A stretch of 15,009 nucleotides of DNA from Candidatus Fraserbacteria bacterium (GTDB lineage Bacteria; Bipolaricaulota; Bipolaricaulia; RBG-16-55-9; DRXL01), in assembly GCA_947085185.1 (NCBI GenBank), contig CAMTVK010000018.1:1-15009 (forward strand). The letters run 5' to 3'. The notes under the pieces are model-generated. The model did not search any database. It saw only the letters and a list, made by a program, of their open reading frames with translations, and was not told the origin of the DNA. This document shows positions 12,045 to 12,981 of this stretch, piece after piece; positions within the stretch are counted from its first letter, which is position 1, and the number at the start of each line of letters is the position of its first letter. Position numbers and translations under genes: made by a program.

Positions 12045-12074
12045 TGGACACGGCAGGCCCAGGCGAGCTATACT
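12045..12074 (+). promoter_or_regulatory. Putative promoter for the leader ORF/DUF1573 operon
   Basis: TGGACA(12045-12050)-18 bp-TATACT(12069-12074), 15 nt before ATG 12090. Confidence 0.5.
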
Positions 12075-12089
12075 GAGAGCGAAAGACCT

Positions 12090-12398
12090 ATGAAGATACT
12101 CGTAGGCAGCTTGATCCTAGGGGTTCTGGTGCTGACAAGCCCGCTGGGGGTTTTGGCACGCTTTGGGTGTGAGCGCCTAGTGCCGATCGCGCTGACGCCT
12201 ATGTTGTCGTCAAGCACCCCGTGCGACACGTCCTCAGGACATGCGCCGAGCGGGTTTGCGTGCGAATGCGCGATGCCGATCGCACCTGCCGTGATGCCTG
12301 GAGCATCGCCGCCCATCCCCTCAGCAAGAGCGATACCACCACAGCCCTCTCAGAATGTGATGCTCATCTCCTGGCGCATCTTTCACCCTCCTACGTAA
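12090..12398 (+). CDS. Putative regulatory leader protein (CutF/CruR/DUF2946-like architecture): signal peptide, Cys/His motif, Pro-rich linker, C-terminal IFHPPT
   Basis: N-terminal MKILVGSLILGVLVLTSPLGVLA; C27, C45, H51 and C58-x-C60; ends WRIFHPPT. The stop codon lies inside the anti-SD stem. Confidence 0.7.
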   Translation: MKILVGSLILGVLVLTSPLGVLARFGCERLVPIALTPMLSSSTPCDTSSGHAPSGFACECAMPIAPAVMPGASPPIPSARAIPPQPSQNVMLISWRIFHPPT

Positions 12399-12455
12399 GC
12401 CTCCTTTCTAAAAGCGCCTATGTGGTCACTCTCACATTCTCGAAAGGAGGCTTAC
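12395..12455 (+). promoter_or_regulatory. Anti-Shine-Dalgarno stem-loop controlling the 12457 gene
   Basis: Perfect 14-bp inverted repeat GTAAGCCTCCTTTC(12395-12408)/GAAAGGAGGCTTAC(12442-12455). The 3' arm contains the SD AAGGAGG; the 5' arm contains the upstream TAA. Confidence 0.8.
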
Positions 12456-12456
12456 T

Positions 12457-12981
12457 ATGTCGAAACACCGAGCATCGCTGTTGCGCACGGCATGGCTGCC
12501 GATCGTGGTCGTCGTTGCTATCGGTGTGATCATCGGGGTGTATTATGGGTTCTACGCGCGGCGTGGGGTCTTAGAGAGCACGTCAGGCACCTCGAAGCTC
12601 GTCGTCACTCCCAAAGTGCAGGATCTTGGGACGATTGACTATCGTGATGGGGTGGTGACGCTCTTCTTCACCGTAGAGAACCAGGGCAACGGGGATTTAG
12701 TCATCACGGAGATGGAGACGTCCTGTGGGTGCACGAAAGCATCACTCATTGTGAACGGGCAAGAGGGGCCGCAGTTTGGGATGCGCGGGCATGGGGAGTG
12801 GCCCCGGGGCTGGTCGGCTCGGCTGCGTCCGGGTGAGCGCGCCCAGCTCAAAGTCACGTATGACCCCTTGGCCCATGGCATCTACGTGGGATCGTTCGAC
12901 CGGCTTGTGTTCATTCGCTCCAACGATCTCGACGAACCCGTCAAGCGCGTGCGGTTCTATGGGTATCAAAGGGGCGGGTGA
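12457..12981 (+). CDS. Membrane-anchored DUF1573-domain (Ig-like) protein
   Basis: N-terminal TM, NQGNGDLVITEMETSCGCT, LRPGERAQLKVTYDP, IRSND; extra GMRGHG and AHG His motifs. Confidence 0.85.
   Translation: MSKHRASLLRTAWLPIVVVVAIGVIIGVYYGFYARRGVLESTSGTSKLVVTPKVQDLGTIDYRDGVVTLFFTVENQGNGDLVITEMETSCGCTKASLIVNGQEGPQFGMRGHGEWPRGWSARLRPGERAQLKVTYDPLAHGIYVGSFDRLVFIRSNDLDEPVKRVRFYGYQRGG

Follow-up and report, generated by a model that had tools for sequence, protein, structure and literature searches.

Does the 102-aa open reading frame that precedes a DUF1573 operon in Candidatus Fraserbacteria act as a metal-sensing leader, in which a ribosome paused just before the stop codon would free the next gene's Shine-Dalgarno (SD) sequence? 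We addressed this question in a contig stretch of 15,009 nt (the window; Table 1) and in related genomes. The ORF, its motifs, the stem over its stop codon and the positions conserved among relatives are observed directly in the sequence, and comparison with relatives indicates that the arrangement is real and well conserved. The reading that we favor, copper-induced control of the downstream operon in the manner of CutF, is one to which we assign a probability of about 0.6.

Table 1. Features of the leader locus and its surroundings, in window coordinates.
Feature	Position	Strand	Basis
Two CopZ-like HMA proteins and CsoR/RicR-family repressor (context)	8846..9852	+	family searches
HisKA_3 kinase with NarL/LuxR-type response regulator, immediately upstream	10471..12035	+	Pfam
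Palindromic box TGAC-N4-GTCA (TGAY-N4-RTCA)	12033..12044	.	abuts -35; present before 21/27 leaders
Sigma70-like promoter TGGACA-18-TATACT	12045..12074	+	promoter scan; similar -35/-10 pairs in relatives
Leader ORF, predicted CutF-like	12090..12398	+	ORF, profile and alignment of relatives
Predicted Sec signal peptide (roughly residues 1-23, V-L-A end)	12090..12158	+	hydropathy; cleavage site by eye
C58-x-C60 motif (four Cys with C27 and C45)	12261..12269	+	conservation in 27 leaders and spacing
F-H-P-P-T-stop, candidate pause motif	12381..12398	+	PP invariant, 27/27 leaders
Stem 5' arm (anti-SD), overlaps stop codon	12395..12408	+	folding and comparison with relatives
Stem 3' arm including SD AAGGAGG	12442..12455	+	sequence and folding
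First target: 174-aa membrane-anchored DUF1573 protein	12457..12981	+	Pfam, alignment, structure model, Foldseek
541-aa gene: DUF1573 domain, CxxC domain and membrane domain with two Pro/Cys motifs	12978..14603	+	ORF, Pfam
Partial gene, cut by contig end	14665..15009	+	resembles C-terminal half of Met-rich exported protein in L008

The leader carries every element that the original prediction had listed, i.e., a signal-like N-terminus, C45/H51/C58-x-C60, a Pro-rich spacer and the C-terminus WRIFHPPT followed by TAA, although its cysteine inventory, correct for C45, C58 and C60, had overlooked C27; the histidines are residues 51 and 99. A basic n-region and a hydrophobic core (mean hydropathy of 2.93 over 12 residues) precede a V-L-A site placed by eye, proline makes up 11 of the final 42 residues, and the Pro-Pro codons occupy 12387-12392. 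C58 and C60 lie 42 and 40 residues upstream of Pro100. The predicted distance of about 40 residues between CxC and Pro-Pro thus holds (40-42). At this distance the leader CxC may still be inside the translocon (about 30 + 17 residues by the estimate of Ozturk et al.). Searches of Pfam and NCBIfam assigned the window leader to no family, and in the ESM Atlas the clusters nearest to it, a lead only, comprise hypothetical proteins without a name (104-110 aa) and DUF6660.

With the DUF1573 protein encoded downstream as query, 28 of 61 related genomes gave matches, and 30 loci were examined (20 strong, 10 weaker). A leader stands directly upstream of the DUF1573 gene in 8/20 strong loci (L001, L003, L004, L005, L009, L014, L015 and the contig-cut L012) and was found in 2/10 weaker ones (L021, L026); at L008 it lies one gene further up, and at L029 the DUF1573 gene belongs to an operon that begins with a second leader. 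No leader was found in the DNA fetched for eight of the 20 strong loci, nor in that for L002 and L006, where the DUF1573 gene follows a similar ABC permease. Matches to a profile built from 11 leaders occur in 29/184 genomes of the phylum; leaders are present in 26 of the 35 genomes of the order, our own genome counted, and their named carriers are Bipolaricaulota, Fraserbacteria and Acetothermia. Three phylum matches outside the order (E values of 8e-4 to 0.009) were discarded: one contains stops, one (L068) has no Pro-Pro and one was not recovered. Rescanning the fetched loci yielded 31 ORFs, from which L068 was dropped to leave 30 leaders; three incomplete or N-containing members were left out of the alignment, which comprises 27. 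A search against 1.84 billion representatives gave 44 matches, 43 of them with a C-terminal Pro-Pro, and the tails of 38 of these 43 differ from those in the alignment (HPP end in 21, RPP in 14). The family profile reaches the unnamed CxxxC...PP proteins P0033 (E = 6.5e-5) and P0037 (E = 2.6e-4).

C58, P100 and P101 are the sole invariant residues of the 27-leader alignment, C45 is at least 90% conserved, and the hydrophobic N-terminus is kept across related leaders. Pro-Pro lies one or two residues ahead of the stop in 27 of the 30 leaders, and all four proline codons are used at both positions among them; the dipeptide is therefore conserved as protein, which rules out that it is kept merely as a CCUCCU anti-SD. 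The FHPP ending, which had been proposed for a conservation test, proved to be a variant of a broader motif near the stop, [W/L/F/D]-[H/R]-PP, FH being found in 2/27. The distance from the last motif cysteine to the first proline of Pro-Pro is 38 residues in 21/30 leaders and 39-41 in the other nine. The ten leaders that were identified solely by their place upstream of DUF1573 matches all fall within 38-41, so that this spacing is no artefact of the profile. Its standard deviation is 1.3, versus 6.8 for the stretch between the N-terminus and the cysteine, and median identity over the last 30 spacer residues is 10%. The spacer is thus conserved in length and not in sequence, as would be expected of a nascent-chain ruler. 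Upstream of homologous DUF1573 operons, where conservation of the signal-like N-terminus, the Cys motif and the C-terminal Pro-Pro was to be looked for, all three are retained at a fixed Cys-Pro-Pro distance.

Folding confirmed that the TAA is embedded in the 5' arm of a perfect 14-bp stem whose 3' arm contains the AAGGAGG SD of the next gene; the two arms, separated by a 33-nt loop, pair in the MFE and centroid structures alike. The region 12340-12480 folds at -39.9 kcal/mol (z = -4.11; 0/200 shuffles equally stable). Perfect SD-covering stems of at least 10 bp are rare but not unique in this genome, occurring at 8/638 AGGAG-ATG sites. No RNA run is listed among the sequencing runs that contain the sequence, and DNA contigs of four runs provided no usable covariation for the stem; one contig (depth of 2.1) has an uncompensated base change at 12454 in the 3' arm, possibly a sequencing error.

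In the 28 leaders whose downstream start could be located, the 21 nt surrounding the stop codon were paired with the RBS. The stop-proximal arm binds its own RBS at a mean of -14.1 kcal/mol versus -10.5 kcal/mol for the RBSs of other leaders (0/20,000 permutations), a significance that is overstated because the genomes are kin. Control pairs, i.e., 100 same-strand gene pairs of our own genome with 45-140-nt gaps, have a median of -6.95 kcal/mol. Pairing at or below -12 kcal/mol was found in 18/28 leaders versus 8/100 controls, and at or below -15 kcal/mol in 12/28 versus 2/100; the three that were inspected among the strongest control stems each follow an ordinary long ORF and no leader. In 24/28 leaders the base that pairs with the initial G of GGAG sits 1-8 nt past the stop, and among these kin genomes the flanking pairs vary on both sides, e.g., an SD GGGGAG with an arm CUCCCC. 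Pairs were tabulated locus by locus, a procedure that leans towards pairing, the MAFFT intergenic alignment being too gappy for pair counts. Stems are weak (-5.7 kcal/mol or weaker) in 4/28 leaders, including a paralog in our own genome (L073; -3.7 kcal/mol). As anticipated for homologous loci, the stop-proximal anti-SD arm is conserved and enriched over control pairs. At L054 (G008:C125), the His-Pro-Pro codons pair with the SD better (-16.5 kcal/mol) than does the post-stop arm (-10.5 kcal/mol), which suggests that the anti-SD is able to shift into the coding region.

How far a ribosome would open this stem was estimated from the predicted cost of opening the RBS in the window, which is 15.8 kcal/mol with no ribosome and 18.3 kcal/mol with one placed 10 codons upstream. 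With a +15 footprint the cost falls to 8.9 kcal/mol (P100 in the P site) or 5.4 kcal/mol (P101 in the P site), whereas a +11 footprint with P100 in the P site barely weakens the barrier (15.4 versus 15.8 kcal/mol). In this model a ribosome on the last three leader codons lowers the cost by about 7-10 kcal/mol, and a pause there would therefore free the RBS. The proposal that a Pro-Pro-stalled ribosome liberates the SD thus survives for the +15 footprint, with the qualification that the 5' arm melts only partly and that the +11 footprint leaves the cost nearly unchanged. At termination the predicted cost is 5.3 kcal/mol, versus 5.4 kcal/mol when stalled; the calculation does not tell a Pro-Pro stall from slow or ordinary termination.

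The genes predicted to be under this control favor copper as the signal. The first target starts at ATG 12457, and its C-x-C, Met and His, invariant in 18 homologs, are likely metal ligands. Its model adopts a PapD/ASH-like Ig fold (pLDDT of 95.9), which Foldseek matched to PapD/ASH Ig domains of a generic kind; the matches listed for it include no copper chaperone that has been characterised. The 541-aa protein gave a DUF1573 match and sub-threshold matches to SfLAP and ArsG, and the "DsbD-like" label that had been put on the target is without a family match, although we take the membrane domain to be CcdA/DsbD-like. Elsewhere in the family, leaders stand directly before a P1B ATPase with CPC, YN and MxxSS motifs (L070, L071), the Cu(I)-exporter signature, or head operons with CopA-type ATPases further down (L031, L032, L033). 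One leader lies ahead of a DUF411 protein (L072), another ahead of a likely cupredoxin, and a Met-rich exported protein directly follows the leader at L008. In 13 cases among family genomes the leader precedes an unnamed exported protein and then an ABC transporter. The L034 cluster includes a thioredoxin-like gene, and several loci adjoin cupredoxin/Rieske/cytochrome b genes. The kinase/response-regulator arrangement upstream of the window leader recurs at L031. Copper is further favored by the two CopZ-like genes and the CsoR-family repressor gene of the window itself.

A sigma70-like promoter lies immediately before the window leader, which is therefore likely the first gene of its transcript. 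The TGAY-N4-RTCA box, a conserved promoter element newly described here at leaders, is situated 46-98 nt before the start in the 21 leaders that have it, usually abutting the -35 element. The window copy is the top-scoring site of the genome scan, and a stricter 13-base version has 80 copies genome-wide, or about 0.003 per segment of 120 nt. Of the 6/27 leaders that lack the box, three directly follow a csoR-like gene. The element resembles Crp/Fnr-family boxes, and its other high-scoring sites precede genes that look like those of a Rieske protein, of SdhC and of regulators of the TetR and Rrf2 types. It is likely an activator site, for which Crp-type HTH proteins (12 matches in the genome) or the adjacent NarL-type regulator are candidate binders.

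Among known systems, the closest is CutF of the R. capsulatus cutFOG operon. Both are small ORFs with an export signal (predicted here from hydropathy and by eye), four cysteines and C-terminal prolines near the stop, and an intergenic anti-SD stem, likewise predicted here, is common to both (gap of 58 nt here, 40 nt in cutF-cutO). CutF combines C69xxxC73 with P109EPEGPPPRL118, so that C73 and P114 are 41 residues apart (PMC8456105), versus 40 for the window leader and 38-41 in its family. The published CutF-like filter (Ozturk 2023) accepts the leader with respect to size (102 aa, limit of <150 aa), position of Pro-Pro (P100-P101 of 102, limit of 15 residues from the C-terminus) and the 58-nt gap to the next gene, and the predicted stem-loop shields the downstream SD as in CutF. 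The window leader has CxC and PP instead of CxxxC and PPP; across the family the motifs are CxC, CxxC or CC and [H/R]PP, and Cys-motif variants are also noted among CutF-like proteins in PMC8456105. Further differences are the targets (here DUF1573 genes, ATPases of the CopA type and the operon of an ABC transporter, in CutF a multicopper oxidase), the phylum and the conserved promoter box. The locus had been put forward as a variant not recognised as characterised; FHPP and DUF1573 do set it apart from RAPP and CutF, but it satisfies the published CutF-like rule and the departure is smaller than supposed. Bipolaricaulota are not named in the sections covered of the cited CutF-like literature. 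We found no published study on such leaders in this phylum or before DUF1573 genes, although the list of CutF-like proteins may include some.

Likeness to CruR (Bp2923) of Bordetella pertussis is more distant. Both are the first gene of a copper-related operon and carry an export signal (predicted here), and CxxC, which most family members have, keeps its distance to a Pro-Pro at the C-terminus. In CruR, C93 and P141 are 48 residues apart, and one or two added residues are tolerated but not five (PMC9426467); the family distance of 38-41 is about 10 shorter. CruR ends in RAPP, and its arrest has been demonstrated (PMC12992588), whereas no RAPP, and hence no CXXC-RAPP pair about 45 residues apart, is found in the window leader. 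The predicted output here is SD release instead of Rho-dependent termination, with a polarity opposite to that of CruR. The window leader has no match to PF11162 (DUF2946), which detects 2/27 family members at all and 1/44 representatives above the cut-off (24.4 versus 23.7), the one that NCBI names DUF2946; over our own genome it gave three sub-threshold matches elsewhere, the best of which is not a leader. The window leader is accordingly CutF-like by prediction, and its kinship to DUF2946 is remote at best. Arrest peptides of the RAPP/RGPP type and secretion monitors (SecM, ApdA/ApdP) likewise pair a uORF for an exported (here predicted) product and a C-terminal Pro-Pro with an envelope-related operon downstream, and Streptomyces RAPP uORFs precede metal and thioredoxin genes (PMC12992588). 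These peptides need Arg at -2, whereas the present leaders have W/L/F/D at -2 and H/R at -1, and R-[AG]-P-P occurs in 0/27; intrinsic, EF-P-resistant arrest is thus not expected.

A sequence of events for copper-induced control can be proposed by analogy with CutF (PMC9973294; bioRxiv 10.1101/2025.02.05.636593, Ozturk et al.). The nascent leader would enter SecYEG and be exported cotranslationally, so that its cysteines would meet, and likely bind, copper outside the cytoplasm. Once pulling by disulfide formation or by the translocon is lost, a pause at HPPT-stop would last longer, and the stem would be melted by the paused ribosome and the RBS exposed. Copper would then switch on a likely copper-handling operon, the direction being that of CutF, with the TGAY-N4-RTCA box possibly adding a second, transcriptional layer. 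EF-P, which opposes the stall in CutF, is encoded in our genome. In Escherichia coli, HPP is a weak pause (PMC5811046) and RPP does not stall (PMC4176338). Any arrest should therefore be conditional, or require upstream residues (W/L/F at -2) or the nearby stop. A further reading, which we regard as speculative and unlikely, places the arrest at termination on [H/R]PP-x-stop and not at an elongation motif, and has a four-Cys ruler read the external thiol or copper state; with a Crp/Fnr-type box it would form a two-layer redox-plus-copper gate on a so far undescribed DUF1573 metal-delivery operon.

The same switch might respond to another signal, the four cysteines reporting extracytoplasmic thiol/disulfide status or another soft metal, with disulfide formation pulling the chain and releasing the pause. 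We consider this unlikely, yet several observations are compatible with it: CxC and CxxC motifs are found in the immediate targets, PMC9312934 lists DUF1573 among selenoprotein families (OS_HP2 matches are weak), a thioredoxin-like gene belongs to the L034 cluster, thioredoxin/DsbA genes can follow RAPP uORFs that contain Cys pairs (PMC12992588), and the CutF model itself invokes disulfides. High box scores also occur upstream of genes that look respiratory. Copper is nevertheless favored by the two leaders directly before Cu(I)-type P1B ATPases, by others directly after csoR-like genes and by a Cys-Pro-Pro spacing that matches CutF. These CopA-type exporters as direct targets (L070, L071) fit induction by copper, and so speak against a CruR-like polarity, in which the pause would be the default, the operon on in the absence of copper, and copper would release the pause and let the stem close. 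CruR works in this way (PMC9426467), a DUF1573 protein could serve copper acquisition or delivery to cupro-enzymes, and several loci lie beside cupredoxin/Rieske/cytochrome b genes. But the leaders lack RAPP, HPP and RPP are weak intrinsic stallers in the sources cited above, and the spacing is 10 residues shorter than that of CruR, which makes this polarity improbable.

Regulated pausing might also be dispensable. With the stop inside the stem arm every terminating ribosome opens the stem, and coupling of the operon to a gene for an exported metal-binding peptide needs no sensing; termination equals the stall in opening cost, and comparably strong stop-proximal stems exist in 2/100 control pairs. 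Plain coupling leaves unexplained an invariant Pro-Pro with free codon choice and a fixed Cys-Pro-Pro distance over a 10%-identical spacer before several unrelated targets, and we give it little credence. Still less plausible, indeed very improbable, is a stem that serves as a terminator or mRNA-stability element unrelated to the ORF. The cutF-cutO stem does affect mRNA stability too (PMC8456105), but the window stem has no U-tract, has a long loop and was not called by the terminator scan, and the place of its arm follows that of the stop codon and of the SD.

CutF and CruR, whose directions are opposite, are the only two DUF2946-type sensors tested in the literature covered. With the present locus their design reaches a deep-branching phylum that has hardly been cultured, and DUF1573 proteins become linked to copper; the surprise is moderate, since the principle is already published. 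The perfect stem over the stop, the ruler fixed within three residues and a motif that stalls only weakly by itself make the locus an unusually clean test case, which could reveal whether the Cys-to-Pro distance (about 40 versus 48) predicts polarity and whether the pause occurs at elongation or at termination.

Two further candidate leaders are encoded in our own genome. The paralog at L073:1093-1422 (G000:C2:70092-70421) ends in LRPPTT, has a weak stem and precedes genes for an exported protein without a name, for a beta-propeller and for an ABC transporter, with orthologous units genus-wide. The other, at L074:958-1224 (G000:C9:45457-45723), is a different, His/Cys-rich candidate of 88 aa with the C-terminus ILERPPRPLARA; it precedes Tat-signal, plastocyanin-like and multicopper-oxidase genes, and a homolog ends in ILEKPPRFSI.

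Other parts of the window yielded minor observations. The HisKA_3 kinase encoded within 10471-12035 is predicted to span the membrane with two segments and has a short loop rich in His; HisKA_3 and NarL-type pairs lie near leaders at L031, L036 and L039 as well, and the pair could act as a metal sensor. At 9849-10516 (-) are two cupredoxin-like pieces, a Tat-signal ORF, seemingly without the C-terminal Cys/His/Met loop seen in L031, and a separate C-terminal remnant upstream, which are likely broken copies. A regularly spaced repeated unit in the ORF translations of 1-1950 looks like a CRISPR array, and two small overlapping genes at 5842-6470 (-) resemble what we take to be a PIN-domain toxin-antitoxin pair.
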